NCBI GenBank assembly: GCA_046351395.1
Contig: JAXLYP010000017.1
Coordinates: forward strand, 193,508 to 246,456
DNA length: 52,949 bases
Reading direction: 5' to 3'
Source: Polyangiaceae bacterium
Lineage (GTDB): Bacteria; Myxococcota_A; Polyangia; Polyangiales; Polyangiaceae
The notes below the pieces were generated by a model. That model saw only the letters and a program-made list of their open reading frames with translations, searched no databases and had not been told where the DNA came from. Of this stretch, positions 3,995-34,107 are shown one piece after another; within the stretch, counting starts at the first letter, position 1; every line of letters starts with the position of its first letter. The position numbers and the translations under genes are program-made.

Positions 3995-4206
3995 CAGGCG
4001 CCGCCATGCTATCGGGTCTCGGGGACCGGGGGCTCCTCCGCACGCTGGTACGAACGTACCTGAGCGGATCGCCGCCGCACCTGGTGGCGAATCCCGCGCT
4101 GGACCGGACCTTTTTGGACCCCGCGCGATGCGCAAGCCAATGACCGCGCAAGGATGGTTCGAATGTCCAATGAGTCCACCGAGGGGCGTGCCGCCCGGAG
4201 CGTTCT

Positions 4207-4322
4207 TGTGGGCTCCTCGCGCGCTTCGACGAGCTCCTCCCTCAGGAGGCCTTGGGGCGGCCCGTGAGGTAGAGGCCCATCCCGCCCTTCTCGGACGCCC
4301 ACGCATAGCGCTCGGTGCCGGG
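4207..4322. repeat. about 115-bp repeat, copy 2
   Basis: See copy 1. It overlaps the last ~25 codons and 3' flank of the methyltransferase gene. Confidence 0.7.
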
Positions 4323-6859: not shown

Positions 6860-7703
6860 GCTCGGTCGCGACGCGCGTGTGGAGCTCGAGCACGGTGAAC
6901 CAATCGATGAGCTCGATGCGGAGCGCGCTCACGGCCGACGCGGCCCGCGCCGTGTGCGCGCGGGGGACCTCCGCGAGCGCATCGAGGAACCCCATGTCCG
7001 TCCCCGCTCCGACGGTCGCGCGCTCGCCGCGCGCGGTCTCGCACTCGACGAGCCCCGCGGTGACGCGGATCCAGTGGTTCGCGACATCTCCCGCGCTCCA
7101 GAGGACGTCGCCTCGCTGAAACCGCACGTCCGTGGACGCGCTCGCGATCTCCGCGAGGCCCTCCACGTTCGCGCGCGCGATGGGCGATCTCCGGAGCTGG
7201 ATGACCCGCTCCACGACCGTCAGCTCCTCGTCCCGAAACGTGCCGTGCTCCGGCGGATCGGAGCGATTGGGCAATGGCCCGCGCTCCGCGAGGAGGTCCC
7301 GCGCGAGGCCCCGCAGCACGAAGCGCTGGAGCGCGAAATCCCGTTGGAGCGCGATCCGGACCGCGTCTCCGGGGATCTCGAGCGCGAGCGTCCGTGCCTC
7401 CGTCGTCGCGCTCAGGTGATCGCGCTCCGTGAGGAGCGCGGTGAACCCGAGCGCGCGCTGGCTCTCCACGCGGCCGACCAGGGTGCCTTCGTGCTCCACG
7501 CGCACGCTCCCCTCGAGCACGTAGAGCACGGACGTGATCGGATCGGTCGCGCGCCAGATCACCGCGCGCGGCCGAAACCGCCGGTAGCGGGAGCGCTCCG
7601 CCATGAGCAGGAGAGTGTCCACGCTGACCGATCGAAGATCGGGCATCGAGCCGAGGAGGCGGGCGCGCGCCTCGACGCTCGCGAGCTCGGGCTCAGCTTG
7701 CAT
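6822..7703 (-). CDS. tandem cyclic-nucleotide-binding (CAP effector) domain protein
   Basis: Two cNMP-binding-like domains (RYRRFRPRAVIWRATDPITSVLYVLEGSVRVE...). Start overlaps the stop of the upstream TLC gene by 11 nt. Confidence 0.65.
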   Translation of the reverse strand: MQAEPELASVEARARLLGSMPDLRSVSVDTLLLMAERSRYRRFRPRAVIWRATDPITSVLYVLEGSVRVEHEGTLVGRVESQRALGFTALLTERDHLSATTEARTLALEIPGDAVRIALQRDFALQRFVLRGLARDLLAERGPLPNRSDPPEHGTFRDEELTVVERVIQLRRSPIARANVEGLAEIASASTDVRFQRGDVLWSAGDVANHWIRVTAGLVECETARGERATVGAGTDMGFLDALAEVPRAHTARAASAVSALRIELIDWFTVLELHTRVATELTAHLARGLRGD

Positions 7704-10515: not shown

Positions 10516-10516
10516 G

Positions 10517-11965
10517 TCAGAACCCCGTCGTCCCGCCGACGAGGAACCGGACGCTCTCGGGCTCGCCGCCCTCCGCGAACGGCTTCGTCCCGAAGCCCAA
10601 GAGGAGGTTCAACGCGTGGTCACGGTGATTCGGCGATTGGAACCCCCCGACGAACGAGAACCGGAGTCGCTCGAGTTCGAAGTCCTCGAAGTCGCGCCCG
10701 AACACGTTCCCCACCTGCGCGCGGAGCGTGGCGTCGACGAACGACCAGATGGGCCAGGTGTACGTGACGCTCGCCGCGGCGGACGTCTCGCCGAGGAGGC
10801 GCCCGGGGGTGAAGCCGAGGAGGGGCTCGTCGTCGGGCACGCGATCGGTCCGACCGCTCCCGATGAGCTCCGTGAACGGCACGCGCGCCGTGCTCGAGAA
10901 GGGCTCGATCGCGCGGACGTCCACGAGGAGCCCGAGCACGCGCCGCGTCCCCGTGACGTCGATGAACCCGCCCACGGACCCGCCCACCTGCGCCCACTCG
11001 ACGTGCGACCCGACGTCGCTCCCGAGCTCGGCGTGCGCGTCGAGCCCGACCCCGGAGCCCGGCCCTGGGCGCGGCTGTCGCGAGTCGAGCACGACGCGCC
11101 CACCGACCTTCACCGCGGTGTATCCGGCGAACCCGTCGGGGAGGGGATAGAGCCCTCGAGCGACCGCGCGGGAGATGGGCAGCGTAGGACACTCGTGTGG
11201 CCATACCGGGCAGCTCTCGTCGGAGAACGAGTGGTGCCGGACGACGGCCCAAGCCTCCACGAAATTGGCCTTTCGCGGCTCCACGTGGGTCCGAATGCCG
11301 CCTCCGACCGAGCGCTGCTCGAACCTCGACTCGTCCGCGTAGCGAGACCGGTACCCCACACCGTAGAACAGGTAGTCGGCGCGGACGACCCCGTCCGCCT
11401 CGAGCTGCAGGTTGGAGCGCACGCGGTGAGAGCCGTCGGGTTCGACCTCGACGTCGAGCGGGACGCGGTCGACCACGCGAGCTGCGAAGTACCTCTCGCC
11501 CCCCGTCGCGACCGACGCGCGGAGTTGATTGTCTGTCACGAGGAAGTCGTCGTAGAAGTGGTAGAGGCCGACGCTCGGACGAAAACCGAACTCGTAGAAC
11601 GCCGTCGGGATGAGGCCCACGTTGTGGTGAGGGCCGAACGTGAAGAAGTCGGTCACCTTCGCCACGATGCCCTCGCGGTCGATCACCGTGGTGATCGCGC
11701 CGAGGGGGCGCCGGATGACGTAGTCCGAGACCACGTAGAGCGGCGCGAAGAGGACGCGGGGGATCCAGAGCGCGCCCTCCGCCGCGGTCGTCTCGCGCGG
11801 TCTGCCCTCGTAGTCCTGCGGTGGGCGCTTCTCTCCGGGCGGCCGGGATGGATCCTCGGGGAGCACGGCGGGGTGCTCGGGGACGTCCCCCCGCGCCGGG
11901 GGCGCCGCCGCGAGGGCAGCGCCGAACGCGAAGACCATGGCACCGAGCGCCTTGGGCGAGTTCAT
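10517..11965 (-). CDS. secreted beta-barrel-like protein with C-terminal Phe (paralog of 23156..24616)
   Basis: Signal peptide MNSPKALGAMVFAFGAALAAAPPARG. Ends ...LRFSFVGGFQSPNHRDHALNLLLGFGTKPFAEGGEPESVRFLVGGTTGF*, nearly identical to the paralog's C-terminus. ATGA overlap with the upstream lipoprotein gene. Confidence 0.7.
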   Translation of the reverse strand: MNSPKALGAMVFAFGAALAAAPPARGDVPEHPAVLPEDPSRPPGEKRPPQDYEGRPRETTAAEGALWIPRVLFAPLYVVSDYVIRRPLGAITTVIDREGIVAKVTDFFTFGPHHNVGLIPTAFYEFGFRPSVGLYHFYDDFLVTDNQLRASVATGGERYFAARVVDRVPLDVEVEPDGSHRVRSNLQLEADGVVRADYLFYGVGYRSRYADESRFEQRSVGGGIRTHVEPRKANFVEAWAVVRHHSFSDESCPVWPHECPTLPISRAVARGLYPLPDGFAGYTAVKVGGRVVLDSRQPRPGPGSGVGLDAHAELGSDVGSHVEWAQVGGSVGGFIDVTGTRRVLGLLVDVRAIEPFSSTARVPFTELIGSGRTDRVPDDEPLLGFTPGRLLGETSAAASVTYTWPIWSFVDATLRAQVGNVFGRDFEDFELERLRFSFVGGFQSPNHRDHALNLLLGFGTKPFAEGGEPESVRFLVGGTTGF

Positions 11966-13779
11966 TGGAGGGCCGCGCCCGGCTCGTCGGGCCTCTGGAT
12001 GGCGACCATCTTGAAGTGGGAGGACGCCCCGAGATCGTACAAATGAACGCGCAGCGGACCCCGCGCCGCGCCGTTCGAGACGTCGAGCACCGCGTATCGA
12101 AGGGGGTGATCGTCGGGCAGCGAGCGGTCGTCCACGACGCGCGGTAGATCCACGCAGACCGTCGCATCGTCGCCGAGGCTGACGGGGAGGGCCTTTCGCT
12201 GGTCGAGGTCGAGCCCCGTCCGGAGCTCGGCGGCGTACGTGAACCGCGTCCTCGGCCAGGTGGTCGTCTTGTGCGCGAGATCGGTCGCGCAGACGCGGTC
12301 GCCCTCGACGGTCACGTCCGCCAGCGGGGATACGACGCTGAAATACCGCGTGAGGATCTCGTCCCTTCGTTGGATGAGTGTCCGCGTGAGGAACTCCGTC
12401 GCGCGAGGGTCCGTGTAGTCGCCGACCCGCACCGCGGCCGCGATGTTCGCGTCGGTGAAGCGCGACAGGATGCGCGCCGCCCACGCGCCGTCCTCCTCCG
12501 TCATGCGAGCGAACGCGGGGTTCGGGTAGCCGCCCTTCCAGTCCTCGGGCACGAAGTCCGGCCTGAAATAGTCGAACATCGGGAGCTCGGTGTTCGCGAC
12601 GGGCCGGTCCCATGGGCGCTCGAACGAGCCGAGCGTCAGGAGGTCGATCGCCACGTCCTCCGGATCGAAGTAGTAGCTGTGGTTGATCCTCCGGTTCCAG
12701 CTCTCCCATTGCCAATGGCTGCCAAAGCAGTCCCCGAGGTCGATGTACCAATGTGTCGTCCGCCCCGGAGAGGAGTCCTTCGACTCGGGGTCCACGGCGT
12801 CCCAGGTGGTCATCGTGTTTTGCTCGCGCGAATCGAAGTGCCCGAGCCACGCGGCCATGAGCCGCGCTCCGCGGAGATCCCTTCGGTCCTCGTGAGGGAT
12901 GATGTCGTTGGGATCGTCTTCTCGCGTCTCCTCGTACCGGAAGGGGCCGATCGCGCGTCCTGGGAGCCACCGCGACGCCACCATTCGTACGAGCCCACCT
13001 CGCTTCTGTGCGCTGTCGAGGATCGCCTGGAGCTTCCCGTCGTCGAACGGCATTTTGGTGCCCGTATTGTCTGCGTAATCGAGCCCGGGCTCGAGCCTGA
13101 GCCAGGACTTGTCGACGTAGACAATCGTGTCGCACGCGGTCCACCAGCCCGCGGCGTGGTAGAGCCTGGACGCGATGGATGTCGCCCCGGTCGCCTTCTC
13201 GCCTTCGCCCTCGGCGTCTGCCTTCAGCATGAACTTGCCGACGCCCTCGATCTCGACCCGAAAGCCCGGGTTCGCGCCGTTCGCCTTGCCCATGTCGACG
13301 CGCCAGGCGCCCGGTTCGTGCGGGGCCGTGGCGATCGTCTTGTGGCCGCAGCTCCCGCGCGTGATCTCCTCGTCGGTCATCGGCCTCACGCCGATGCGGT
13401 TCGTGAACCAGCTCGAGTCGGGCACCTCGTCGACCGCGTTCACGTTCCGCGCAGCGAAGCCGACGTCCGCGGCGAAGAACTTCACGATGGGCCGGAAGAT
13501 GGTCTTGTCGGCGACGTCCCATAGGAACGGGGACTCGTACTCTTCGGGCCGACAGAGTTGCTTCTTCGCGTCCTTCGGATCGGGGCGACACGGCACTCGG
13601 ACCGCCCGCAGATCCTCGTCGATCCAGACCGGGTCGCGGAGCGGGAACCGCCGGATGCCACCGCACCCCGCGACCGAGGTCGCCGCGCCGCTCGCCAGCG
13701 CCGCGCCGATCACGACTCGGCATGCGGCTCGCAGAATCTTTACGGCCCCCGCCTCGCGATGAGCCCACCGAATCGCCAT
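11962..13779 (-). CDS. secreted lipoprotein with atypical kinase-like motifs (paralog of the split 18997/21043 gene)
   Basis: Signal and lipobox (...ALASGAATSVAGCGG). Motifs LMAAWLGHFDSREQNTM (HxDxxxxN-like) and WYIDLGDCFGS (DxG) align with VLTALIGHQDDIGVNFY and LLSVDNGLAFG of the paralog. ATG at 13779 overlaps the divergent PAP2 start. Confidence 0.6.
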   Translation of the reverse strand: MAIRWAHREAGAVKILRAACRVVIGAALASGAATSVAGCGGIRRFPLRDPVWIDEDLRAVRVPCRPDPKDAKKQLCRPEEYESPFLWDVADKTIFRPIVKFFAADVGFAARNVNAVDEVPDSSWFTNRIGVRPMTDEEITRGSCGHKTIATAPHEPGAWRVDMGKANGANPGFRVEIEGVGKFMLKADAEGEGEKATGATSIASRLYHAAGWWTACDTIVYVDKSWLRLEPGLDYADNTGTKMPFDDGKLQAILDSAQKRGGLVRMVASRWLPGRAIGPFRYEETREDDPNDIIPHEDRRDLRGARLMAAWLGHFDSREQNTMTTWDAVDPESKDSSPGRTTHWYIDLGDCFGSHWQWESWNRRINHSYYFDPEDVAIDLLTLGSFERPWDRPVANTELPMFDYFRPDFVPEDWKGGYPNPAFARMTEEDGAWAARILSRFTDANIAAAVRVGDYTDPRATEFLTRTLIQRRDEILTRYFSVVSPLADVTVEGDRVCATDLAHKTTTWPRTRFTYAAELRTGLDLDQRKALPVSLGDDATVCVDLPRVVDDRSLPDDHPLRYAVLDVSNGAARGPLRVHLYDLGASSHFKMVAIQRPDEPGAALQ

Positions 13780-21719: not shown

Positions 21720-23159
21720 ATGAGCAACGCGCCGCGACGATCGTCGAGTCCACCCGATCCCAAAGAGGTCGCCCGGCGCTCCCTCGTCGAACGAGCGCTC
21801 GGGGTGATCACCGAGGTGAGGGCAGGCGAGGGGGGGACCGCACTCCTCATGACGCTCAATGTCTTTCTGCTGCTCACCGCATACTATCTCATCAAGCCGG
21901 TCCGTGAGGGCCTCATCGGGAGCGTGAAGCACGGCCCCGAGTACAAGAGCTACATGGGGGGCGCGGTCGCGCTCGCGCTCTTCGCCATCGTCCCGCTCTA
22001 CGGGATGCTCGCCGCGAGGCTGAAGCGGAACGTGCTCATCTCGAGCGTCTCGCTCTTCTTCGTCGCGAACCTCGTCGGCTTCTGGATGCTCGGCCGCCTC
22101 CCCTGGGTCGCGACCGAGACGGGGGCGACGGTCTATGCGCTCGCGTTCCTCCTCTGGGTGGGCGTGTTCAACCTCATGATCGTCGCGCAGTTCTGGGCGT
22201 TCGCCGCCGACGTGTACACCGACGAGCAGGGGAAGCGGTTGTTCGCGCTCATCGGTCTGGGCGCGTCCGTCGGCGCGGTGATGGGGAGCCTGGTCATGAA
22301 CCGCGTCGTGACCGAGCTCGGCACGGAGCACATGATGCTCGTCGCCGCCGTGACGCTCGCGCTCGCGACGGCGGTGACGCTGCTCATCCATCGGCGCGAG
22401 TCCCGGCGGCCGCGGGCGCCGGACCCGGAGAAGGAGCGGAAACAGCGCGAGGAGAAGGAGGCGAAGCAGAGCAGTCAGGGCGCGTTCTCGCTCGTGCTCC
22501 ACGACCGGTATTTGCTGCTCATCGCGGCGTTCACCGTGCTCTTCCAGATCGTGAACACCAATGGCGAGTTCATCCTCTCGAGCCTCGTGGCGGACGCGTC
22601 GCGCGCCGTGACCGAGACGCGAGAGGAGCAGAAGGCGTGGATCGCCTCGTACTACGGGAGCTTCTTTCTCTGGGTGAACATCGCGGGCGTGGCGATCCAG
22701 ACGTTCCTCGTCTCGCGGATCGTGAAGTGGGGCGGGCTCAAGGTCGGCCTCCTCATCTTCCCCGTCGTCGCGCTCATCAGCGAGGCGGCCATCGCGGTCG
22801 TCCCGGTGCTCCTCCTCGTTCGGATCGGCAAGACGGCGGAGAACTCGCTCGACTATTCGCTCAACAACACGCTCCGCAACGCCCTCTGGCTCCCCACGAC
22901 GACGCGCGCGAAGTACGTCGCGAAGCAGGCGATCGACAGCTTCGTGTCGCGCGTGGGCGACATGGGGTCGGCGCTCGCGATCTTCATCCTCATCGACGCG
23001 CTCCACTTGACCGTGCGAGCGGTCGCGACGCTCAACGCGTGCCTCGTCCTCGCTTGGATCTACGTGTCGATCGAGATCGTCCGCGAGAACGGCAAGCTCA
23101 CCGAGGACGCGAAGGGCAAAGCGCTTTCACGGCTGGAGGCGGCGGGGGCGAGCGCGTGA
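21720..23159 (+). CDS. TLC/Npt-family nucleotide transporter (ATP/ADP-translocase family)
   Basis: ALLMTLNVFLLLTAYYLIKPVREGLIG... 12-TM-type profile; paralog of the N-terminal domain of 7693..10515. Confidence 0.75.
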   Translation: MSNAPRRSSSPPDPKEVARRSLVERALGVITEVRAGEGGTALLMTLNVFLLLTAYYLIKPVREGLIGSVKHGPEYKSYMGGAVALALFAIVPLYGMLAARLKRNVLISSVSLFFVANLVGFWMLGRLPWVATETGATVYALAFLLWVGVFNLMIVAQFWAFAADVYTDEQGKRLFALIGLGASVGAVMGSLVMNRVVTELGTEHMMLVAAVTLALATAVTLLIHRRESRRPRAPDPEKERKQREEKEAKQSSQGAFSLVLHDRYLLLIAAFTVLFQIVNTNGEFILSSLVADASRAVTETREEQKAWIASYYGSFFLWVNIAGVAIQTFLVSRIVKWGGLKVGLLIFPVVALISEAAIAVVPVLLLVRIGKTAENSLDYSLNNTLRNALWLPTTTRAKYVAKQAIDSFVSRVGDMGSALAIFILIDALHLTVRAVATLNACLVLAWIYVSIEIVRENGKLTEDAKGKALSRLEAAGASA

Positions 23160-24650: not shown

Positions 24651-26060
24651 CCGATGACCGAAGCGCTACCCGACGACGCCGAGATCTTGGGAACGCTCGA
24701 TGAACTCATCGAGCGCCTTTCGAAGAGCAAGCGCGGCGCTGATCTCCGGAACGCGCTGCACGACGCGAAGCGCTTGAGGAGCGCGACGCTCAAGTGGGGC
24801 ATCATCCCGCCTCCGCCCGATGCGCGGCGCGAGCTGCTCGACCGCGTCGCGCAGCTCCTCGCGCTCGCGGCGGGTGCCCAGGCGGACGGGGACGACGGTG
24901 AGCGTCCGCCGGAGTCGGCGCGGTCGCGGTCTTCGAGGAAGGCGCGCGGCGCGGCCCTCGAGGAGAAGCCCGCGCGTGGCGCAGCGTCGCTCGGTTCGCG
25001 CATCCACGACGAGGCGACGAAGCCCGAGGGGCGGTTTCCGAGCATCCACGACGAGGAGACCGCGCCCCTCCCGAGCAGGCCGCCCACCGCGGCGGAGCGC
25101 CGACGAGGCAAGGCGCGCGCGGAGGGCGCGTATGCGAAGTCGGTGCACGACGAGGACACCGCGCCCGGGCCCGAGGTTCGTGCGGCGCAAGCGGTGGAGG
25201 CGCGCGTGATTCGCCGGCCCGAGATCGCCGACGAGGAGACGGTCCGCGAGGGCTATCGCAAGGCCGCTCCACCGAAGTCGTCTCCCACACCGGTGGCCGC
25301 GCCGCCGTCGAAGGCGCCGTCCGCGCCTCCGCCGAAGGCGCCCTCCCCGACGCCACCGAAGGTGCCGTCTGCGCCTCCGCCGAAGGCGCCCTCCGCACCG
25401 CCGCCGAAGTCGCCGTCCGCGCCCCCTGCACCGCACCCCAAGCTCCAGCGGACGCAGAGCGGCGCGGTCGCGCTCGCGCCGCTCCAGGACCTCGACCTCA
25501 GCGACCTCGAGCTCTTCGCGGCGCCGCCGAGCAAGAGCTCGCTCTCGGCGAGCCCGCAGCTACCGCCGATCGTCATGCCCGCATTGTCCGACGGGGGCGC
25601 CGCGCCCAAGTCGAAGATCGAGGGGTTCAGCACGTCGGTCTCCACGCCCAAGATGGCCGCGGTGCGGCCGCCCCCGTCCAAGCCGACCGAGCCGCTGCCC
25701 GCCGTGAAGGAGGCTTCGGGCGTCACCATCGTGCGCGGGAATGCGTCGGCGTGGCGGCCGCTCCCCGCCGCTCCCGCGGTGCTCGTGCGCACCGTCCAGT
25801 CGACGGCGACGGGCGTGATCGCGCTCGTCAAGCTGCCCGTCTCGGCGCGTGTCCCCTCGAAGCGAGTGGACGGCGAGGTGCAGCTCTTCGTGTTGATTGG
25901 AGGCATCACGCTCGGTCCGCACGAGCTCGCCGCGGGCGACGCGTGTCGCCTCGAGAAGGGCTCGACGCGACAAGCGATCACGACGACGGGCCCCGCGACG
26001 ATCCTCTACGTGGGCCCGAGCCTCGGCGGCGACACGACCGATCCACAGGCCGACGTCTGA
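24651..26060 (+). CDS. hypothetical protein with three IHDE-type repeats, a (PPKAPSA)n linker and a beta-rich C-terminal domain
   Basis: RIHDEATKPEG / SIHDEETAPLP / SVHDEDTAPGP; PPSKAPSAPPPKAPSPTPPKVPSAPPPKAPSAPPPKSPSAPP. Confidence 0.5.
   Translation, partial: PMTEALPDDAEILGTLDELIERLSKSKRGADLRNALHDAKRLRSATLKWGIIPPPPDARRELLDRVAQLLALAAGAQADGDDGERPPESARSRSSRKARGAALEEKPARGAASLGSRIHDEATKPEGRFPSIHDEETAPLPSRPPTAAERRRGKARAEGAYAKSVHDEDTAPGPEVRAAQAVEARVIRRPEIADEETVREGYRKAAPPKSSPTPVAAPPSKAPSAPPPKAPSPTPPKVPSAPPPKAPSAPPPKSPSAPPAPHPKLQRTQSGAVALAPLQDLDLSDLELFAAPPSKSSLSASPQLPPIVMPALSDGGAAPKSKIEGFSTSVSTPKMAAVRPPPSKPTEPLPAVKEASGVTIVRGNASAWRPLPAAPAVLVRTVQSTATGVIALVKLPVSARVPSKRVDGEVQLFVLIGGITLGPHELAAGDACRLEKGSTRQAITTTGPATILYVGPSLGGDTTDPQADV
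25299..25426 (+). repeat. imperfect 24-bp tandem repeat (about 5 copies) encoding PPKAPSAP
   Basis: ccgccgaaggcgcc(g/c)tccgc(g/a)cc(t/g) units visible directly. Confidence 0.6.
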
Positions 26061-26075
26061 GCGCGGAGGGAACGG

Positions 26076-27797
26076 GTGGCCGACGCGCAGACCGAACGCT
26101 GCGAGGGATGTGGCGCCGAGCTGACCGCGGGCGCCCGCTTCTGCGCGACGTGTGGGCGCCCGGTCGCCGCGCTCGCTCCAACCGAGCTGCACGCCCCGAG
26201 GTTCGACGCGACCCCCGCGATGCGCCTCGCGCCGGGGACGATGCTGGGGAGTTACCGGATCGAGGCGCTCCTCGGCGAAGGCGGGATGGGCGTCGTCTAC
26301 CGCGCGCGCGACGAGGTCATGCACCGCACGGTCGCGCTCAAATGTCTGCACACGAACCTCGCGGGGGACGCGGGGATCCGCCGGCGCTTCGGGCGAGAGG
26401 CGCGCGCGCTCGCGACGGTCGTGCACCCGAACGTCGTGCGCGTGTACGACTTCGTCGATCACGAGCACGTCCCCGCGATCGTCATGGAGCTCGTCGACGG
26501 ACCGAGCCTGTCCGCGCACGTCGCGGCGTGGCGTGAGTCCGTCCCGTTCGAGGAGATCCGCGGCCTCTTCGGGCAGATCCTCGCCGCCGTCGGCCACGGG
26601 CACGACAACGGCATCATCCACCGCGATCTCAAGCCAGACAATGTGCTGCTCGCGCGGGAGGCGCGCGGGCTCCGCCCGAAGGTCGTGGATTTCGGGCTCG
26701 CGAAGATCCTCGAGGGGACGACGTACACCGTCACGGGCGCCCTCCTCGGGACGTGCCGGTACATGGCGCCCGAGCAGGTGCAGGACCCGGAGCGCGCGGA
26801 TCTGCGCGCCGACATCTATTCGCTGGGCGTCACCCTCTATCAGCTCGTGACGGGGAGCGTGCCCTTCGATCGGGCGACCCACTTCGCGGTCATGATGGCG
26901 CACGTCAACGAAGCACCGCGCCCGCCATCCTCGATCCGCGCGGACGTCCCTGCGCTCCTCGAGCGCCTCGTCCTCGACGCGCTCGCGAAGGATCCGAGCG
27001 CGCGCCCTCCCTCGTGCGCCGTGTTCCGCGAGCGGCTCGACGAGGCGCTCGCGGCGTACGAGCCGGAGGACGCACCGCCGGGCTCGCTCCCGCGCGTCGT
27101 GCGAGGGGCGGAGACGGCAGATCTCGTGCTCGTGCCCGAGGGTCCGTTTCTCTTTGGCCCGCACCGGCGCCGCGTCGATTTGGACGCGTTCTACATCGAT
27201 CGGACGCCGGTCACGAACGGCGAGTTCGCCGCGTTCGTGAGGGCCACGCGATATGCGCCGTCGGACGAGGGGAGCGGACGGTTCCTGCATCACTTCCGGG
27301 GTGGGAAGGCGCCCGTCGGCGCGGAGCATCACCCGGTGACGCACGTCTCGTGGACCGACGCGCGGGCGTACGCGACGTGGGCGGGCAAGCGACTCCCGAC
27401 GGAGGCGGAGTGGGAGAAGGCCGCGCGAGGGACGGACGGACGGAGGTACCCATGGGGCCGCGCGGAGCCCACCGCGGATCGCGCGAACTACGGGAAGCTG
27501 AACGGTGGAACGACGCCCGTCACCGCGCACGCCGCGGGAGCGTCACCGTACGGTGTGTTGGATCTTGCGGGCAATGTCTGGGAGTGGTGCGAGGACGTCG
27601 ACGATCCCGCGTTTTACCTCGACGGTCCTACGCGGAACCCGAAGAACGCGCCGCGCGCGGGCGAGCGCGCGCGGCACGTGGTGCGCGGCGGCTCCTGGCT
27701 CTACGGCCCGCGCGCCCTGCGCACGGTGTACCGCGCGAGCTTCGAAGCGCACTATCGCGTCGCGAGCGGCGGATTCCGCTGCGCGCGCTCCGCCTGA
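26076..27797 (+). CDS. Ser/Thr protein kinase with N-terminal zinc ribbon and C-terminal FGE-sulfatase (SUMF1-like) domain
   Basis: CEGCGAEL...CATCG; kinase motifs GEGGMGVVYRA, VALK, HRDLKPDNVLL, DFGLAK, APE. FGE domain: HPVTHVSWTDARAYATWAGKRLPTEAEWEKAARG, YPWG, GNVWEWCED, RVVRGGSW. GTG start with GGAGGG upstream. Confidence 0.8.
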   Translation: MADAQTERCEGCGAELTAGARFCATCGRPVAALAPTELHAPRFDATPAMRLAPGTMLGSYRIEALLGEGGMGVVYRARDEVMHRTVALKCLHTNLAGDAGIRRRFGREARALATVVHPNVVRVYDFVDHEHVPAIVMELVDGPSLSAHVAAWRESVPFEEIRGLFGQILAAVGHGHDNGIIHRDLKPDNVLLAREARGLRPKVVDFGLAKILEGTTYTVTGALLGTCRYMAPEQVQDPERADLRADIYSLGVTLYQLVTGSVPFDRATHFAVMMAHVNEAPRPPSSIRADVPALLERLVLDALAKDPSARPPSCAVFRERLDEALAAYEPEDAPPGSLPRVVRGAETADLVLVPEGPFLFGPHRRRVDLDAFYIDRTPVTNGEFAAFVRATRYAPSDEGSGRFLHHFRGGKAPVGAEHHPVTHVSWTDARAYATWAGKRLPTEAEWEKAARGTDGRRYPWGRAEPTADRANYGKLNGGTTPVTAHAAGASPYGVLDLAGNVWEWCEDVDDPAFYLDGPTRNPKNAPRAGERARHVVRGGSWLYGPRALRTVYRASFEAHYRVASGGFRCARSA

Positions 27798-28363: not shown

Positions 28364-29629
28364 GTGGGCAACGGAACTTCGATCCCCGCTCACGCGGAGC
28401 TCGGCGACTCGCACAACTTCGGGCGCCGCGTCTCGATCTCGGGCGATCGGGTGCGGAAGCCCCGCACGCTGTTCTGGGAGTGGCTGGTCCTCGCGGCAGA
28501 CAGTCCGCTGCGCCTCGCGCTCGATCGCATGGCGCGCGAGGCGCCGGCGTCGTCCGGCCTCGACGCGAACGCGTTCTCGTTCTTGCCTTCGCTGGCGTTC
28601 TCGGGGCACGAGTCGCGCGAGGGAGGCGAGGTCGAGCGCGTCGACCTGGATCCGCTGCCCGCGCTCTCGGACGGCGAGAGGACCCGATTTGCGAGGCTCG
28701 TGGGCCGCTCGATCGCCCTCTTCGCGTGGCTCGGGGTGTCCGACCTGCACTGGGAGAACCTCGTGCTCGGCGTCCGGAGGGACGGTGGAGTGGTGTTCGG
28801 CCCGCTGGACGTCGAGATCATCCTGAGCGACCTCTCGCTCCCGACGGAGACGAAGCTGCTCCCGGACGCGGATCCGGAGTACGCGGCGCTCTGTCGGCAC
28901 GCGTGCGGTGTGCGCCGGGCCCTGCCGTGGCTCGGCAAGCCGATCCGCGCGGGGGATCTCGTCGCGATGGCCTCGGACTATCGCGCCACGCTCGCGCTCC
29001 TCGACCGACAGTCCAACGCGGTCGCGGAGGCGCTCGCGGGCCTACCGGGGCTCGCGGACGCGCCGATCCGCGTTTGTCTGCGCAGCACGGGCGACTACGT
29101 CGAGGCGCGACGCGCCGTGCGCCGAAGCGCGCTCTGGCCTCCCTTGCTGGACGCCGAAGCGGAGCAGCTCGCGCGCGGAGACATTCCCTATTTCTTCCGT
29201 CTGTACGGGCGCCCCGGGATTCACTGGTTCCCCGAGCCGGAGTTGAAAGAGCTCGGGACGCTGCCTTCGAAGGGGGACGTCCCCAAGCTCGATAGGCTGC
29301 TCTCCGTGGCCAAAGGCCTCCGCTCGAGCTCGCGAAAGAGCCTCCGCGAAGAGGGCCTGTTCGCGCTGCTGGGCGCGTTCGATCATCCGTCGATGGGAGG
29401 AAAGTACGAAGATCGCGGCCTCGAGGTCGCGTTCCAGCGGCGCTCCATCGTGCTGACGCTGAAAGGGGGAGAGGAGCTGCGTGCGCACCGCGATTTGGGG
29501 GCGTACGTCGGGAGCGTCTATTTGCCGTGCACCTGCGGGGAGGTCCGCACGGTGTTCGTCCCTCCCGTGACCACCTGCGAAGGCGGGACCGCGGCTCCGC
29601 CACCTGCGAAGGTCAAACCGGGTCGGTGA
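28364..29629 (+). CDS. standalone LanM-N-terminal-like (DUF4135, kinase-fold) protein
   Basis: GDSHNFGRRVSISGDRVRKPRTLFWEW and FARLVGRSIALFAWLGVSDLHWENLVLGVRRDGGVVFGPLDVEIIL match the DUF4135 core (GDSHNxGR..., DLHxENL). GTG start 2 nt after the SUKH stop. Confidence 0.55.
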   Translation: MGNGTSIPAHAELGDSHNFGRRVSISGDRVRKPRTLFWEWLVLAADSPLRLALDRMAREAPASSGLDANAFSFLPSLAFSGHESREGGEVERVDLDPLPALSDGERTRFARLVGRSIALFAWLGVSDLHWENLVLGVRRDGGVVFGPLDVEIILSDLSLPTETKLLPDADPEYAALCRHACGVRRALPWLGKPIRAGDLVAMASDYRATLALLDRQSNAVAEALAGLPGLADAPIRVCLRSTGDYVEARRAVRRSALWPPLLDAEAEQLARGDIPYFFRLYGRPGIHWFPEPELKELGTLPSKGDVPKLDRLLSVAKGLRSSSRKSLREEGLFALLGAFDHPSMGGKYEDRGLEVAFQRRSIVLTLKGGEELRAHRDLGAYVGSVYLPCTCGEVRTVFVPPVTTCEGGTAAPPPAKVKPGR

Positions 29630-29636: not shown

Positions 29637-30266
29637 TCAAGGGCAGCCCCCATCGATCACGAGTCCAGTCCGGCCGAGCGGCTCGGCGTCGGGCGTCCAG
29701 TCGAGCCCGTCCGCGAACGACATCACGCCCTCCACGTCCACCGCGCAGGGGGGAGCTGAAATCGCGAGCTTCCCACCGAGCGAGGTCGCGTTCGCGATCT
29801 CGCCGATGGGTGTAGGCGGACCGATCCCGGTCCACGGCGCGCAGTCGTCCGCGTCGTGGGTGACGCGCGCGAACTTGATGAGATCGAGCGGGTATTGCCC
29901 GAGATCGACGACCTCCATCGAGAGCGCGTCGAGCCCGAGCTGGAAGCAGAGATCCCGCGCGTCGTCGCGCTTGAGGATCGCGACGGCCCCGGCGTTCGTG
30001 AAGAGGTTGATGGCGCTGTAGGCGTCGCAGGGACCCGCGCACGATCCACTCCCCGTGCTGCTCGACGCGCTCGCGCTCCCGGCTCCACTTCCGGTCGCGC
30101 TCGAGCCGACGGTCGTTCCGCCCCCATCATCCTCGAGCGTGGCGACGTCGCGACACGCGCCGAGGAGCACAATCGCGATCACGAGGGTCGCCCGCGGCGC
30201 CGTGCGCTCGCGAAGGAGTGCTCCGAGGGAGGTCCCTTGGGGTGCGGTTTCGCCGCGCGCCCTCAT
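29637..30266 (-). CDS. Cys-rich small lipoprotein
   Basis: LLGAC lipobox; ATGA overlap with the upstream tssC-like gene. Confidence 0.55.
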   Translation of the reverse strand: MRARGETAPQGTSLGALLRERTAPRATLVIAIVLLGACRDVATLEDDGGGTTVGSSATGSGAGSASASSSTGSGSCAGPCDAYSAINLFTNAGAVAILKRDDARDLCFQLGLDALSMEVVDLGQYPLDLIKFARVTHDADDCAPWTGIGPPTPIGEIANATSLGGKLAISAPPCAVDVEGVMSFADGLDWTPDAEPLGRTGLVIDGGCP

Positions 30267-31615
30267 GGATCGAGCGTCCCTTTCAAGCTGAGCGTGAAGA
30301 ACGCGCCCATGTGCTTGAAGTGCGGGCGCAGCCTCAGATCGAAGGAGCGCCACGCCTCGCCGTCGGTCGAGTCGCGCACGATCACCTGCACCTTCCGCAG
30401 CGGCCTTCGCCCCCGGAGCGCGGGGGGCACGACCTCCCGATCGGCGACGTATTGGCCCGCCCAGTCGTTGAGCTCGCGTTCGTCGTCCACTGCCGTCGTC
30501 GCCCATGATGGCTTTTCGACACGCCGAGGGGGCGCGCCCGGGACGAGCGCCTCTGGGTCGTTGATTTGGAAGGAGCGGTGCACCACCTTCAGGTACTGAC
30601 CAATCCTCGTGGAGATGAACACGTAGGGGAGCTCGGTGCCGAGCCGGTGGTTGAACTCGGCGGCGCGCGCCTCCTCCGAGTTGCCGAAGCGCTTGGGCTT
30701 CATGAGCGACCGCGCCGAGAAGAAGCCCGCGGACGTCGCGTCGACGAAGGAGAGGGGAATGAACCCCTCCTCCGACAGATCGTACTCGGTCCGCTCGCCG
30801 AGGTTCGCGTCGAGCGGCGAGATCGCGCCCTCGGGCGCGCGCGGCAGGTCCTCGATCAGGCCGTCCGCGCGCCCGACGATGTTCGGACACCAGCGGTACT
30901 TCGCGAACGACGACGTGAGGCGCGTCGCGAACGCAACGACCGCGAGCCCCCAAGCGAGATCTTCGGCGCGAGCGGTCTCGTCGTACGTGAAGCCCCCGAG
31001 CGTCTCGGTCGCCTCACGGGCAACGGCGAAGGGAGCGCGGAGGAGGAATCGGCCCACGGTGAGCCCCAGGAGGGATGCGCTCGCCTGGTCTCGCAGTGCA
31101 GCGAACGCGCGGTGATGCGCGGCGAAGTGCGCAAGAAGATCGACCGTGCCGATCGCGCGGCGGTCCTCGATCCCGAAGAAGCCTGGTGAGGCGGCCGCGA
31201 TGAAGGGGGCGAGGGAGCACGTCCCGACCTCCGCGATGCGCTCGAGGAGCGTGATGTCCTCCGGCGTGGGGTCGAACTCGAAGTCGGCGAGGATCGCCCC
31301 GTACGGTCGGTCGGTCGCGCCTCGGGCCGTCACCGCAAAGAACGCGCTCTCGCGCGCGGGCGCGCCGGAGCGCACGAGGTCGACGCGGAGCTCGTCGAGC
31401 GTACACGGGTAGAACGCGATCTCGATGTTCTCGCGGAAGTTCGTCCGCTCGACCAGGAACGCGAGGCTCCGCCACGCCCGCTCGAGGCGCTGGAACTTCG
31501 GGTGATGGAGGATCGCGTCGAGCTGCGCGGCGATCCGACGGTCCAGCGAGTCGATGATCGCGTCCGCGCGCGTGGCGGCGAGATCGACGAGGAGCGCATC
31601 ATCGTGCCGTACCAT
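30263..31615 (-). CDS. tssC: type VI secretion sheath large subunit TssC-like protein (N-terminally short, orphan)
   Basis: IAAQLDAILHHPKFQRLERAWRSLAFLVERTNFREN, FAKYRWCPNIVG, LGTELPYVFI and RPHFKHMGAFFTLSLKGTLD match conserved TssC/VipB blocks. Only about 20 aa precede the ILHHP block; the divergent DTW gene starts about 60 bp upstream. Confidence 0.8.
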   Translation of the reverse strand: MVRHDDALLVDLAATRADAIIDSLDRRIAAQLDAILHHPKFQRLERAWRSLAFLVERTNFRENIEIAFYPCTLDELRVDLVRSGAPARESAFFAVTARGATDRPYGAILADFEFDPTPEDITLLERIAEVGTCSLAPFIAAASPGFFGIEDRRAIGTVDLLAHFAAHHRAFAALRDQASASLLGLTVGRFLLRAPFAVAREATETLGGFTYDETARAEDLAWGLAVVAFATRLTSSFAKYRWCPNIVGRADGLIEDLPRAPEGAISPLDANLGERTEYDLSEEGFIPLSFVDATSAGFFSARSLMKPKRFGNSEEARAAEFNHRLGTELPYVFISTRIGQYLKVVHRSFQINDPEALVPGAPPRRVEKPSWATTAVDDERELNDWAGQYVADREVVPPALRGRRPLRKVQVIVRDSTDGEAWRSFDLRLRPHFKHMGAFFTLSLKGTLDP

Positions 31616-31675
31616 CCTGGCATTCGGACCTGCGCGACCTCGCTTGTCAAGGCACGGTGCGCCGATGAAGGCGCC

Positions 31676-32371
31676 GTGATAACGAGCGTCGTGGACGCGA
31701 CCCCGCCCGCCCCGAAACCCGACTCGACGCCTTGCGAGGTGTGCCGGCGTCCTCGCTTCGCGTGCGTGTGCGACCGCGTCGTCGCTTACCCCACCGAGCG
31801 GCGCGTGTTGATCCTGCAGCATCCGCAGGAGCAGGACGCGCTCCTCGGCACCGCGCAGCTCCTCGCGGCGAGCTTGCCGGCGGCGCGCATCGTCATCGGG
31901 TTGAGCTGGCCGAACCTCGGCGCGGCGCTCGGCGAGCCCGAGGTGGACGTGAAGAAGTGGGCGGTGTTGTTCCCCGATCGCGAAGCGGAAGGCGAGGGCG
32001 TCGCCACGCGCCGCGGAGCTCCGGTGGATCCGCGCGCGCTCTCGGGGATCGTCGTGCTCGATGGCACGTGGTCGAAGGCGAAGGCGCTCTGGTGGCGGAA
32101 CCCGTGGCTCACGAAGCTGCACCGCATGACGCTGAAGCCGAAGCAGCCCTCGATCTACGGCAGGCTGCGAGCGGAGCCGAAGCGCGAATACGTCTCCACG
32201 CTCGAGTCCGTGGGCGCCGCGCTCACGCTCTCGGGCGAACCCCCGGAGATCGAAGCGGGCCTCTCGCGCGTCTTTCGGACGCTCGTGCAGCGTGTCCGAG
32301 ACGCGGACGTCGCCCCCGAGGAGCGCAGGCTTTCGAAGAGCACGCGGCCCCCGCGACGACGGCCGGGCTGA
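31676..32371 (+). CDS. DTW-domain protein (tRNA acp3U-transferase-like)
   Basis: CEVCRRPRFACVCDRV and VVLDGTWSKAKALWW (DTW motif). GTG start at 31676 or 31691. Confidence 0.65.
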   Translation: MITSVVDATPPAPKPDSTPCEVCRRPRFACVCDRVVAYPTERRVLILQHPQEQDALLGTAQLLAASLPAARIVIGLSWPNLGAALGEPEVDVKKWAVLFPDREAEGEGVATRRGAPVDPRALSGIVVLDGTWSKAKALWWRNPWLTKLHRMTLKPKQPSIYGRLRAEPKREYVSTLESVGAALTLSGEPPEIEAGLSRVFRTLVQRVRDADVAPEERRLSKSTRPPRRRPG

Positions 32372-32622
32372 CTGGACGACCCGGCGTCTGCCCGTGGATA
32401 CGTGCGACGACCACCGAGCGCACGCAATTCCGCGGAGGACCGCGGCTGAATGGCTCCGTTCTGCGGCGGGTCCTCCACCGCATTCCACGACCGCCCTCCT
32501 GGGCGAAGTGGACAAAAGGCTCCGAATGTCCTCCTCGCGTTGGCGCGCGACGAGGAACTCCGCACGTCGCGGGTGCTCCGCGCGCCGCTCCCCGGGCCAA
32601 CGCGCTGATAGCGTCTCCATCG

Positions 32623-34107
32623 ATGGACGCAGAACCGGAGTCCGACGCTCGCGCGCCGTCGTCGGCGCCGACCTCCGCACCCCTGTCGGACGCGGAGCCC
32701 GCGGTGTCCACGCCAATGTCTGTCGCCGATCCGCCGCGACCCGAGCCCGCGCGACCGACGAGGCCCAGCCGAGATCGACGCGTCGTCGCGGGGATCGTGG
32801 CCGCGCTCGTGGCGGTCGCGGTCGCCGCGTGGGTGATCGTTCGCGCGCTCGCGGGAGCGCCGCGCGTCGCGTTCGGTGTGGCCGCGCTGTCGTCCGACGA
32901 GGCGATCCTCTTCACGCGCCGCGGGGACGGCGCGGCGGCGCGCGTGAACGCCGTCGAGCTCGTCCGCGCGACTGGAGGCCTCCGGTGGACTCATGACGTG
33001 AGCCCACTCGAACCGTTCGAGGTGTCCGGGTACTCCGCAGTCGCCGCGAGTGACGATCGCGTCGTCCTCTCCGGCGCCCGCGACGGGGGGACGGTCGTCG
33101 AAGCGCTCGTTCGGACGTCGGGCGACTTCGCGTGGGCGACCGTCGTCGCGCGGGACGCGTCCACGCCGCGCGCGGGGCCGATGCTGCTCGTGGACGCGCC
33201 TCGCGTGTACGCGATCCACGCGAAGGCGGGTGGGGGAGCGGCGATCACCGCGCTCGAGCTGGACGCGGGCCACGCGCTCTGGACGCTCGACCTCGCCTCG
33301 CCGGACGCGCCGGTCGTGCTGCTCGCGGCGGAGCGTCTCCTCGTCGGGGGGAGCGACGGCGTCGCGCTCGTCGACGGCGTCACCGGTGGAGTGAAGCGCG
33401 CGGTCCCGATGAGACAGATCGCGTGCGAGACGCCGCTCGGGGTCGTCGGGTTCGACGGGGCTCATCACGTGACCCTGTTCGCCCCGCCCGGGCCGACCGG
33501 TGAATCGGGGGCGTCGGTGACCGAGCTCGATCGAAATGCGTCGCGTGGCCCGTGCGGCGTGCGCGGCGAGGATGTGGTGTTCAGCGTCGTCCGGGACGGC
33601 AGGCGCGGCCTCATGCGACTCGAGCCGACGACGGGGAGGCAGCGGTGGATCGTGGATCTCGGCTCGGTCGAGCTCGGCGCATTCGAGACGGTCGACGGGC
33701 GGCTGCCCCGCTTCCTCCCCGTCGCGCTGACGCGTCGAGCGGACGACGCGACCCACGTGGCGGTCGTCGACGTGGACGAGGGCGTCGTCGTCAGAGACCC
33801 ACCCATCGACGCGCGCGCGAGCGCGTTCGTGAGCGCTGAGCGCGCGTGGATTCGCGCCGGTTCGGTGATCGTCGCCCTCGACCCTGCGACGGGGAACATC
33901 GAGCGCGCAACCTCCTATCCCTCGCTCTTTCGGGAGGGCGTCGTCCGTCGCGACGACGCGCGGTTCGGTGTCCTCTTCGCCGTCGGGGACGACAGTCGCC
34001 GTCCCCCCGACCTACCGTGGATCGCGATCGATCTCGCGACCGCGCTCACGCGCCGCACGAACGGTGGGGTCGCGTCGACCGACGTGACGGCTCGCGGCTG
34101 GCCCTGA
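32623..34107 (+). CDS. membrane-anchored PQQ-like beta-propeller repeat protein
   Basis: Acidic N-terminus, TM (VVAGIVAALVAVAVAAWVIV), and repeated ...GHALWTLDL / ALDPATGNI propeller blades. Confidence 0.6.
   Translation: MDAEPESDARAPSSAPTSAPLSDAEPAVSTPMSVADPPRPEPARPTRPSRDRRVVAGIVAALVAVAVAAWVIVRALAGAPRVAFGVAALSSDEAILFTRRGDGAAARVNAVELVRATGGLRWTHDVSPLEPFEVSGYSAVAASDDRVVLSGARDGGTVVEALVRTSGDFAWATVVARDASTPRAGPMLLVDAPRVYAIHAKAGGGAAITALELDAGHALWTLDLASPDAPVVLLAAERLLVGGSDGVALVDGVTGGVKRAVPMRQIACETPLGVVGFDGAHHVTLFAPPGPTGESGASVTELDRNASRGPCGVRGEDVVFSVVRDGRRGLMRLEPTTGRQRWIVDLGSVELGAFETVDGRLPRFLPVALTRRADDATHVAVVDVDEGVVVRDPPIDARASAFVSAERAWIRAGSVIVALDPATGNIERATSYPSLFREGVVRRDDARFGVLFAVGDDSRRPPDLPWIAIDLATALTRRTNGGVASTDVTARGWP

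Follow-up and report, generated by a model that had tools for sequence, protein, structure and literature searches.

A short TssC-like gene without tssB, overlapping a predicted lipoprotein gene, in a Polyangiaceae contig

Features of the locus

The window, i.e. the whole stretch of DNA analysed, covers 52 949 nucleotides of Polyangiaceae contig JAXLYP010000017.1. On its minus strand, a short TssC/VipB-like gene is followed directly by a predicted lipoprotein gene. The features of this locus, in window coordinates, are the following:

30263 to 31615, minus strand: short TssC/VipB-like coding sequence, 450 aa, identical to NCBI MFO0616352.1; GC1/2/3 of 0.69/0.49/0.89
31568 to 31615, minus strand: residual N-terminus, residues 1–16, MVRHDDALLVDLAATR; canonical TssC has about 65 residues there, with the ClpV-binding helix and helix H1
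30704 to 31564, minus strand: VipB (PF05943) sheath N-terminal domain, residues 18–304 (Pfam), containing Ala170 (31106–31108) at the VipB K223 position
30503 to 30571, minus strand: lineage-specific insertion in a loop, residues 349–371 (about 23), a gap in PDB alignments with low model confidence
30275 to 30493, minus strand: VipB_2 (PF18945) gpW/gp25-like C-terminal domain, residues 375–447 (Pfam), containing the handshake strand RPHFKHMGAFFTLSL
30277 to 30282, minus strand: Shine-Dalgarno-like AAGGGA within the TssC-like coding sequence, 10 nt 5′ of the lipoprotein ATG (motif match only)
30263 to 30266, minus strand: ATGA stop/start overlap of the TssC-like and lipoprotein genes
29637 to 30266, minus strand: predicted lipoprotein coding sequence, 209 aa, lipobox LGA-C38 (Cys codon 30153–30155), GC3 0.84
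31616 to 31675, no strand assigned: divergent intergenic region of 60 bp between the TssC-like gene and a DTW-domain gene, presumed site of both promoters

Coding sequence and predicted fold

The TssC-like open reading frame runs on the minus strand from an ATG at 31615–31613 to a TGA at 30265–30263 and is uninterrupted over its 450 codons. Its codon bias is typical of the genome, with a GC3 (0.89) equal to that of its neighbours. The four blocks that the initial annotation had quoted as diagnostic of TssC/VipB are all present in the translation. The Pfam VipB profile was matched from position 1 to 300 of 301 by residues 18–304 (E 9e-64), and VipB_2 by residues 375–447 (E 3.5e-19). The score against the TIGR03355 equivalog was 302.5 bits for a cutoff of 271.5, with an alignment beginning only at profile position 46. 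Using phmmer, residues 17–449 were aligned with residues 65–490 of VipB and 66–492 of Myxococcus xanthus TssC. Since this core spans VipB 65–490, it comprises everything that is resolved in the sheath, including the C-terminal handshake strand, in which RPHFKHMGAFFTLSL pairs in the alignment with VipB RPHFKYMGANFELSL. Also retained are the domain-2 sheet and the helix whose pairing partner is the C-terminal helix of TssB. The AlphaFold (AF2) model had a pLDDT of 81, and the best Foldseek matches were the VipB/TssC chains 3J9G, 5URX and 5URW (TM 0.77–0.83). The gene product is, by these alignments and this model, an intact protein with a complete predicted TssC/VipB sheath fold. The loop insertion stands in place of the invariant QREQIGSWKE segment of canonical TssC, and canonical Q346, E348, K372 and E373 are absent. 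Residues 353–371 of this loop were modelled with a pLDDT below 50.

The missing N-terminus

Residue 17 falls at about position 65 of VipB and at position 66 of M. xanthus TssC, and positions 1 to about 65 of the canonical HMM are absent. The start had been placed about 20 residues ahead of the ILHHP block in the initial annotation; this figure was corrected, as ILHHP begins at residue 35 and is hence preceded by 34 residues. Canonical Polyangiaceae TssC proteins have about 84 residues before ILHHP, so roughly 50 are missing. The ClpV-binding helix lies within the first 60 or so residues of TssC, a stretch that is disordered when the sheath is contracted (PMC5048182). As judged from the alignments, the protein lacks a segment of about 50 residues that comprises the ClpV-recruiting helix and the outer-layer helix H1. 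Its own residues 1–16 were left unaligned to the canonical N-terminal HMM by hmmalign and are predicted, in the AlphaFold model, to lengthen the first helix (H6-36). A remnant of the ClpV-binding helix was sought in these 16 residues and rejected: MAFFT pairs DDALLVDL with SLLDEILAE, but loosely and without significance, and hmmalign does not align them.

The same segment had been said to interlock canonical TssC with TssB, a statement that does not agree with solved sheaths. There, the handshake is made by the N-terminal strand of TssB and the C-terminal strand of TssC, and TssB strands are also interlaced with the TssC domain-2 sheet (PMC5807055). Both of these TssC elements are retained here.

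It is extremely improbable that the gene is a full-length canonical tssC whose N-terminus has been masked by an assembly error, a frameshift or a misplaced start codon. The frame does remain open far 5′ of the ATG (open reading frame 30263 to 32716), but this upstream stretch overlaps the opposite-strand DTW gene and its composition in the TssC frame is of non-coding type (GC3 0.71, GC1 0.86). The initial annotation had named an alternative start or frameshift restoring a full N-terminus as fatal to its reading. None was found: the 23 upstream in-frame codons contain no start codon, and no similarity to the canonical TssC N-terminus was detected in any frame upstream of the ATG. Furthermore, the related proteins described below are all equally short.

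Genomic neighbourhood

The divergent DTW-domain gene is, as first reported, about 60 bp upstream; its Pfam match had an E value of 1.4e-38 and its first in-frame start is a GTG at 31676, which leaves a gap of 60 bp. No match to the sigma-70 consensus was found in this intergenic region (31616 to 31675), and the tRNA, Rfam and promoter scans gave nothing relevant. Anti-phage defence families were searched with PADLOC and gave no match.

The reported absence of tssB, hcp, vgrG and baseplate genes from the window held in Pfam, tblastn and tblastx scans. Pfam detected no T6SS family other than that of the TssC-like gene among 43 predicted proteins lying between 597 and 52785 (41 gene calls, the DTW gene and one open reading frame in an extended version). 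Sorangium TssB and the canonical TssC N-terminus had no tblastn match in the window. Three canonical T6SS loci and as many VgrG islands were compared with the window by tblastx, keeping HSPs of at least 55 bits as the raw output was mostly high-GC noise; only the TssC-like gene and a kinase match were recovered. A tssB just outside the window in the same operon, which had been raised as an objection, is ruled out because a divergent gene and a convergent gene bound the operon. A canonical TssC of the same MAG was looked for among nine Polyangiaceae MAG TssC proteins, whose accession numbers are not contiguous with MFO0616352.1.

The downstream lipoprotein gene

The signal peptide of the predicted lipoprotein, ...ATLVIAIVLLGA-C38, has Arg residues upstream and fits the lipobox [LVI][ASTVI][GAS]C. 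It is followed by a Gly/Ser-rich linker (residues 46–75) and a C-terminal domain in which six Cys are conserved. Only two homologues were found by protein search (98% and 58% identity), both with the lipobox and all Cys conserved; in the 58%-identical one (P0285), Cys38 and the following RDVAT are invariant. A metagenome scan gave no further lipoprotein locus, and the open reading frame had no match in Pfam, NCBIfam or PADLOC. Structure prediction from a three-sequence alignment gave a pLDDT of 29 and was unusable.

The ATGA overlap noted in the initial annotation is present, and the GC3 of the lipoprotein open reading frame (0.84) is of coding type. The further statement that the genes form an expressed two-gene unit is graded plausible, from the overlap and from AAGGGA, which precedes the lipoprotein start by 10 nt. 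Among the relatives examined, the pairing of TssC with this lipoprotein was seen in this lineage only.

A clade of short, tssB-less TssC paralogues

Orphan copies were looked for in related genomes, as had been suggested, and a clade of short TssC paralogues without tssB was found. On sequence comparison, the TssC-like protein belongs to this distinct paralogous clade. It was placed inside the clade in a neighbour-joining tree with moderate bootstrap support (124/200, 62%). Its core scored 525 bits against an HMM of the short clade, built leaving it out, vs 389 bits against one made from 76 canonical TssC (a difference of +136). Clade members have 11–31 residues ahead of the core (16 in the window protein). 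The sole long exception, P0126, has 63 and possibly a miscalled start. Short-clade loci never adjoin tssB and have neither this gene nor a canonical N-terminus, whereas 75 of the 76 reference canonical loci have both a tssB immediately upstream and a canonical N-terminus. The exception among the latter (L082) is a tandem tssC copy in which the N-terminus is present and no tssB match of its own was found. Complete Sorangium genomes encode a short TssC alongside canonical tssBC, and both types are present together in strains So ce291, So ce1335, So ce1000 and So ce726. Literature searches gave no account of a truncated or orphan tssC. The clade is unnamed, its members being annotated simply as TssC, and it is defined in this analysis.

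In most of the clade, translation is coupled to that of a single downstream gene, usually by ATGA; the ATGA junction is also present at L002, L003, L004, L017, L088 and L089. In the relatives, this downstream slot is occupied by a full-length ferritin-like gene (seven cases: four ATGA overlaps, one after a 3-nt gap and two inferred from gene size and overlap only), a degraded copy (one) or a VgrG gene (one), and is empty in one case. The ferritin-like partner has about 245 aa and a weak similarity to Rubrerythrin, DUF455 and EncB. Part of the usual partner gene is deleted at L001. Three partner proteins were searched against the window by tblastn and gave nothing (best E 0.15, elsewhere in the window). 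Homology of the lipoprotein with the ferritin-like partner was also considered and rejected, BLASTP against a partner being not significant and tblastn also negative.

Links of the clade with T6SS genes are uneven. At L088, the VgrG gene overlaps the short TssC gene, a direct T6SS link, and VgrG/PAAR/Rhs islands adjoin L001 and L002. T6SS genes are absent within 10 kb of the short-TssC loci L003, L004, L089 and L030, and in the window. C-terminal WD40 or HEAT domains are present in relatives whose N-terminus is short.

Selection and conserved residues

The dN/dS of short TssC was 0.26–0.37 among Sorangium orthologues, indicating purifying selection; the lineage of the window itself offers just three synonymous and two non-synonymous differences. 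In the same pairs of Sorangium genomes, amino-acid identity was 75–79% for short TssC vs 97% for canonical TssC, and the short clade evolves about 8–10 times faster. Disruption of the gene in close strains, the other objection raised at the outset, was not seen: in a second sample (L005, 99.3% nucleotide identity), codons 50–450 of the TssC-like gene are intact, as is the gene pair.

Among the 258 columns conserved in canonical TssC, 147 (57%) are retained in the window protein and 104 in the clade. VipB D333 is conservatively replaced by Glu274. VipB K223 is replaced by Ala170, and no short-clade member has a Lys at this position; the K223A mutation abolishes sheath assembly in Vibrio cholerae VipB (PMC5797969). 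That K223 and many invariant charged residues are lost counts against any incorporation into a lattice.

Comparison with known systems

The window protein resembles canonical TssC/VipB of T6SS-i (PDB 3J9G, 5URW) in its two Pfam domains (PF05943 and PF18945), its identity (39–47% over the structured core, VipB 65–490), its fold (TM about 0.8), and the ILHHPxFQxLE helix region, FAKYRWCPNI motif and C-terminal handshake strand. It differs from it in the absence of the ClpV-handle/H1 segment of about 50 residues, of an upstream tssB and of a surrounding T6SS cluster, in the K223 to Ala replacement, in the 57% of conserved residues kept and in the 23-residue loop insertion. The Sorangium/Polyangiaceae short TssC proteins (P0002 of So ce291, P0012 of So ce861, P0007 of So ce1000, P0123 and P0124) share with it the short N-terminus, the lack of tssB, the core type and the ATGA. 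Their identity to it is 41–51% and their partner is the ferritin-like protein of about 245 aa, unlike the unrelated predicted secreted lipoprotein found here.

R-type pyocin and phage sheaths and Francisella IglB are also without the ClpV-targeted N-terminal helix of domain 3. Pyocin sheaths consist of domains 1 and 2 only and are not recycled (PMC5807055). However, the genes of these proteins lie in complete tail or T6SS-ii clusters, with those for tube and baseplate, their identity to the window protein is far lower (8–26%), and the window protein retains the rest of domain 3. IglB was its weakest sequence match among TssC-family PDB entries. Orphan or auxiliary T6SS modules (hcp/vgrG/PAAR-effector islands) are comparable as cases of a structural-gene paralogue away from the main cluster, and some clade members are in or beside VgrG islands, but the window has no VgrG, Hcp or PAAR gene.

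Possible functions of the short TssC

The initial annotation had left two options, a decaying T6SS remnant or a sheath-domain protein put to a different use. The second is favoured: the protein is probably no dead remnant but has an accessory or altered job. A non-functional leftover of a lost or duplicated T6SS cluster, heading to a pseudogene, would account for its separation from every other T6SS gene, for the N-terminal deletion, disordered 23-residue insertion, fast evolution and K223 loss, and for the partial deletion of the partner gene in L001. Such decay is nevertheless improbable given 450 codons without stop or frameshift, a GC3 equal to that of the neighbours, a dN/dS of about 0.3 among Sorangium orthologues, a confident AlphaFold model and an intact gene in a second strain. 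Moreover, the truncation is common to the whole clade, whose members are 40–50% identical, and is thus ancient and maintained. Slightly less probable still is a T6SS effector/immunity-like or cargo pair, with the TssC-like protein as a specialized T6SS-associated protein and the lipoprotein as its immunity or neutralizing partner. T6SS immunity proteins are commonly periplasmic lipoproteins, the ATGA-coupled pair with a variable downstream gene is like overlapping effector-immunity gene pairs, and some relatives lie within VgrG/PAAR/Rhs islands. Against this, the TssC-like protein has no toxin domain, secretion is not a property of sheath proteins, the ferritin-like protein that serves as the usual partner is cytoplasmic, not exported, and pairing with the lipoprotein is confined to one lineage.

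The best explanation, with about an even chance of being correct, is an accessory sheath-fold protein that is blind to ClpV and depends on a putative TssB encoded elsewhere in the genome. Such a pairing is the most likely since the TssC fold needs TssB strands to complete the domain-2 sheet. The short TssC would not build a contractile sheath of its own; it may act as an accessory or modulatory subunit beyond the grasp of ClpV, forming no normal lattice, for example by capping, seeding or tuning sheaths or by sequestering TssB. In this lineage, the lipoprotein would be co-translated with it, substituting for the usual ferritin-like partner. It is possible, with a clearly lower probability, that the protein works with none of TssB, Hcp and ClpV and serves instead as a scaffold or oligomer with its coupled partner (ferritin-like in most genomes, here the lipoprotein). 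Most loci are without nearby T6SS genes, and the several short-TssC loci that have none within 10 kb also count against an accessory subunit. The two-gene module with the ferritin-like protein is conserved across members that are 40–50% identical, and K223 is gone together with about 150 canonical-conserved positions. The WD40 and HEAT fusions of short-N-terminus relatives are at the C-terminus, i.e. the handshake end, and would not fit the sheath wall, which indicates T6SS-independent use. On the other hand, all solved sheaths have TssC domain 2 completed by TssB strands (PMC5807055), which a ferritin-like protein, being helical, is unable to provide. Both the TssB-pairing helix and the handshake strand at the C-terminus are still conserved, one clade member is operonic with VgrG, and a canonical T6SS is also present in every complete genome examined.

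Automated annotation, including TIGR03355, labels the short TssC proteins ordinary sheath subunits, so that they are counted as T6SS components although they have no recycling handle, lack the partner gene and have lost key residues of the lattice. Tentatively, the clade may be an unrecognized family whose sheath fold, released from ClpV recycling and from the canonical lattice, has been reused as a modular partner protein: of a ferritin-like protein in the majority of genomes, of VgrG or a lipoprotein in some, and as a WD40/HEAT fusion elsewhere. It would then be a new type of cap or regulator for the T6SS of myxobacteria, or have a wholly T6SS-independent role. A conserved, selected, ClpV-blind TssC paralogue would give a new handle on the control of sheath assembly, length and recycling in myxobacteria, or alternatively would be a building block of contractile machines in another role. 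Concrete test cases are the complete Sorangium genomes with a short tssC and its ferritin-like partner beside canonical tssBC. The window gene alone is a modest gain, being an atypical member whose usual partner is swapped for an uncharacterized lipoprotein.

Two-gene unit in the window

The TssC-like gene and the lipoprotein gene lie on the same strand of the window, whose G+C content is 70%:

30263-31615 (-), TssC-like CDS, 450-aa ORF, identical to MFO0616352.1 (Polyangiaceae MAG)
29637-30266 (-), lipoprotein ORF, 209 aa, its ATG overlapping the TssC-like TGA stop (ATGA)

All TssC/VipB blocks quoted in the initial annotation were found in the 450-aa translation. Pfam VipB covered residues 18-304 (full model, E 9e-64) and VipB_2 matched residues 375-447. 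The NCBIfam equivalog TIGR03355 scored 302.5 bits (cutoff 271.5), with the match starting at profile position 46. An AAGGGA motif was matched 10 nt upstream of the lipoprotein ATG, and the lipoprotein ORF had a coding-type composition (GC3 0.84). The divergent DTW-domain gene upstream of the TssC-like gene, previously placed about 60 bp away, was measured at 60 bp. On the downstream side, 8 bp separate the lipoprotein stop from the end of a convergent gene; the unit therefore consists of exactly two genes. This convergent gene (28364-29629 (+), 421-aa ORF) had a weak DUF4135 (LanM-dehydratase-like) match, and the 8 bp leave no room for a terminator.

Pfam scans of the 43 predicted proteins spanning 597-52785 detected no T6SS families; kinases, PAP2, TLC/MFS transporters, two-component proteins and others were found. 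With Sorangium TssB and the canonical TssC N-terminus as tblastn queries, no match was obtained in the window. In tblastx comparisons with three canonical T6SS loci and three others rich in VgrG, the window matched at the TssC-like gene and at a kinase gene only. These results agree with the initial annotation, in which no T6SS partner genes were found in the window.

Retained and missing parts of the TssC-like protein

Using phmmer against PDB sequences, residues 17-449 were aligned with VipB 65-490 and M. xanthus TssC 66-492; chain B of 3J9G begins at VipB residue 61. The AlphaFold model (pLDDT 81) gave VipB/TssC chains as best Foldseek matches (TM 0.77-0.83). From these alignments and structural matches, nothing is missing of the TssC part ordered in contracted sheaths. 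The C-terminal strand, RPHFKHMGAFFTLSL, was retained. Protomers are linked by a handshake in which the N-terminal strand of TssB joins the C-terminal strand of TssC, and in domain 2 the TssC strands are interlaced by TssB strands (PMC5807055). The ClpV-binding helix lies within the first ~60 TssC residues and is invisible in contracted sheaths (PMC5048182). In P. aeruginosa, an extra helix H1 (residues 39-54) contributes to an outer tri-helical bundle (PMC5807055). Judged from sequence, the missing segment is the recycling handle and not the TssB-interlocking elements. Given the ordered part present and these published roles, the premise of the initial annotation that the missing N-terminus interlocks with TssB was imprecise: handshake and domain-2 elements are retained and the ClpV-binding segment is lost. 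The ILHHP block is preceded by 34 residues, not about 20. Neither an alternative start nor a frameshift restores the missing segment.

A clade of short TssC paralogs

Homologous proteins are numbered P and genomic loci L. The protein search with the TssC-like protein gave no close homolog (next best 49% identical). It recovered a set of 431-444-aa TssC in Sorangium genomes also encoding a canonical 494-aa TssC (short/canonical, for example: So ce291, P0002/P0101; So ce1335, P0004/P0104; So ce1000, P0007/P0108). An exhaustive search of representatives (4307 matches) yielded further short forms (P0121, P0123, P0124, P0125, P0129, P0136, P0140) and many TssB-TssC fusions. In a neighbour-joining tree of the core region, the window protein fell within an 18-protein group apart from canonical Polyangiaceae TssC (bootstrap 124/200; P0135 is a fragment). 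In 17 of the 18, 0-31 residues precede the core; the exception, P0126, has 63 and possibly a miscalled start. The window core, scored independently of N-terminal length, reached 525 bits on a short-clade HMM built without the window protein vs 389 on an HMM of 76 canonical TssC. Using hmmalign, canonical positions 1 to ~65 were missing in every short-clade member. Membership of the window protein in a conserved clade of short, orphan TssC is well supported by these sequence comparisons. No description of short orphan TssC paralogs was found in the literature.

Genomic context of the short genes

A canonical-type TssC was present in 78 of 80 genome loci. The canonical N-terminus and a tssB directly upstream were found at 75 of 76 canonical reference loci; the exception, L082, has a tandem tssC copy with the N-terminus present and no tssB match of its own. 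The two tandem tssC of this Myxococcaceae MAG (9949-11223 and 11651-12925) are full length, both with the canonical N-terminus. Both features were absent from L017 and L030 (the short loci among the 80), from the separately fetched short loci and from the window.

Table. Downstream gene and junction of short TssC genes
L002, L003, L004, L017, L089/L090: ferritin-like, 240-247 aa; ATGA overlap (L090: 4-bp overlap, gene calls)
L091 (P0121): ferritin-like, 241 aa; 3-nt gap
P0123 contig: 244-aa gene, known by gene call only; 4-bp overlap
L001: ferritin-like gene, partly deleted
L088 (P0129): VgrG; ATGA overlap
L030: no co-directional gene; no junction
Window: lipoprotein, unrelated to the ferritin-like partner; ATGA overlap

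The ferritin-like genes were located as follows:

L002, 11329-12072
L003, 5874-6605
L004, 11305-12042
L017, 11281-12003
L089, 10312-11034
L091, 2390-3115

Their products (~240-247 aa, mutual identity 43-87%) carry two E..RH motifs, match Pfam Rubrerythrin/DUF455 weakly and have no curated family. Similarity to the M. xanthus encapsulin cargo EncB (7S5C) was weak (phmmer E 0.005). L001 and L002 adjoin VgrG/PAAR/Rhs islands; no T6SS neighbours were found at L003, L004, L089 and L030. At L088, the short TssC (920-2284) overlaps by 4 bp a full VgrG (2281-4851; Phage_GPD, Gp5_trimer_C), the sole direct operonic tie to a T6SS component detected for the short clade.

Selection, residue loss and possible role

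The Sorangium short orthologs had a dN/dS of 0.26-0.37, and their amino-acid identity was 75-79%, whereas the canonical TssC of these genome pairs were 97% identical. That the TssC-like gene is a decaying remnant, one of the two options proposed initially, is poorly supported, and so is a mis-annotation. The other option, a sheath-domain protein serving another purpose, is favoured, and the initial interpretation is partly supported. In this reading, inferred here, the short TssC would be an accessory, ClpV-blind sheath-fold subunit relying on a TssB encoded elsewhere. It is favoured because TssB strands are still required by the fold, both the helix that pairs with TssB and the handshake strand are conserved, one clade member is operonic with VgrG, and a T6SS is also present in all complete genomes examined.

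A T6SS-independent role is less likely; the loss of lattice residues speaks for it. The 76 canonical TssC are at least 85% conserved at 258 alignment columns; of these, only 104 were retained by 80% or more of the short clade and 147 by the window protein. The VipB K223A mutant cannot assemble sheaths (PMC5797969); this position is Ala170 in the window protein and Lys in no short-clade member. VipB D333 corresponds to Glu274, and the canonical invariant QREQIGSWKE segment is replaced by a 23-residue loop, predicted to be disordered (AlphaFold, alignment). The conserved ferritin-like partner, the absence of T6SS neighbours at most loci and the C-terminal WD40 or HEAT domains of relatives point the same way. 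The initial observation of a short orphan TssC-like gene coupled to a lipoprotein was confirmed with minor corrections; its value lies mainly in the family-level pattern and less in the window gene, an atypical member.

Lipoprotein

The lipoprotein has a predicted signal peptide with lipobox LGA-C38, a Gly/Ser-rich linker and a six-Cys domain, and matched no family in Pfam, NCBIfam or PADLOC. Only two homologs were found among 5.8 billion clusters. One, 98% identical, is encoded on two Logan contigs that also carry this gene pair (99.3% nucleotide identity); the other, 58% identical, comes from another Polyangiaceae MAG, with every Cys conserved. In neither protein search did any TssC-like protein exceed 50% identity to that of the window, so the gene of the 58% homolog is probably not coupled to an ortholog of the TssC-like gene. 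The coupling is thus probably lineage-specific.

The lipoprotein genes of the window and of L005/L006 (the 99.3%-identical strain) show eight differences, seven of which fall at 30188-30243, within the first 27 codons. Four of these seven change an amino acid, and one change turns codon 22 of the other strain into ATG. This clustering is compatible with weak constraint on the signal-peptide n-region or with a variable start site.

Other TssC relatives and window genes

TssC-like P0133 (784 aa), P0169 (673 aa), P0217 (754 aa) and P0156 (691 aa) carry C-terminal WD40 beta-propeller or HEAT-repeat extensions of ~265-370 residues. These come after the handshake strand, an arrangement that a canonical sheath wall could hardly accommodate. 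The N-terminus is short in three of them; the VipB domain of P0217 starts at residue 49. Representatives of ~560-640 aa (P0128, P0130-P0132, P0134, P0137-P0139, P0143-P0145, others) resemble TssB-TssC fusions, with a TssB-type N-terminus ('ERVNIVYR...ELPLKLLVLGDFT') and a TssC core from ~residue 160. These also seem to be devoid of the ~60-residue TssC N-terminal segment. T6SS clusters of Polyangium/Polyangiaceae contain a second gene with a VipB domain, which follows the canonical tssC closely and is convergent to it. This gene is very divergent, sharing 20-29% identity with the core of the window protein (L008 11477-13456 (-); Pfam E 8e-47). Weaker tblastn matches were obtained in L007, L009, L010, L014, L019, L025, L027, L034 and L043.

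The gene at 26076-27797 (+), 1.8 kb from the two-gene unit, encodes a Ser/Thr kinase with a fused FGE-sulfatase domain. In So ce1000 a kinase+FGE gene (L004 20823 onward) lies ~9.5 kb from the short TssC, and in So ce291 a kinase gene (L001 1175-2854) lies ~7 kb away. This proximity is probably coincidental because kinases are abundant in myxobacteria. Two proteins with TLC ATP/ADP-transporter-like regions, one of 940 aa with HEAT repeats (7693-10515 (-)) and one with MFS matches (21804-23159 (+)), are unusual in a presumably free-living myxobacterium. A 24-bp tandem repeat (25297-25423, 5.3 copies) encodes a proline-rich PPKAPSAP repeat within ORF 24654-26060, which had no Pfam match.
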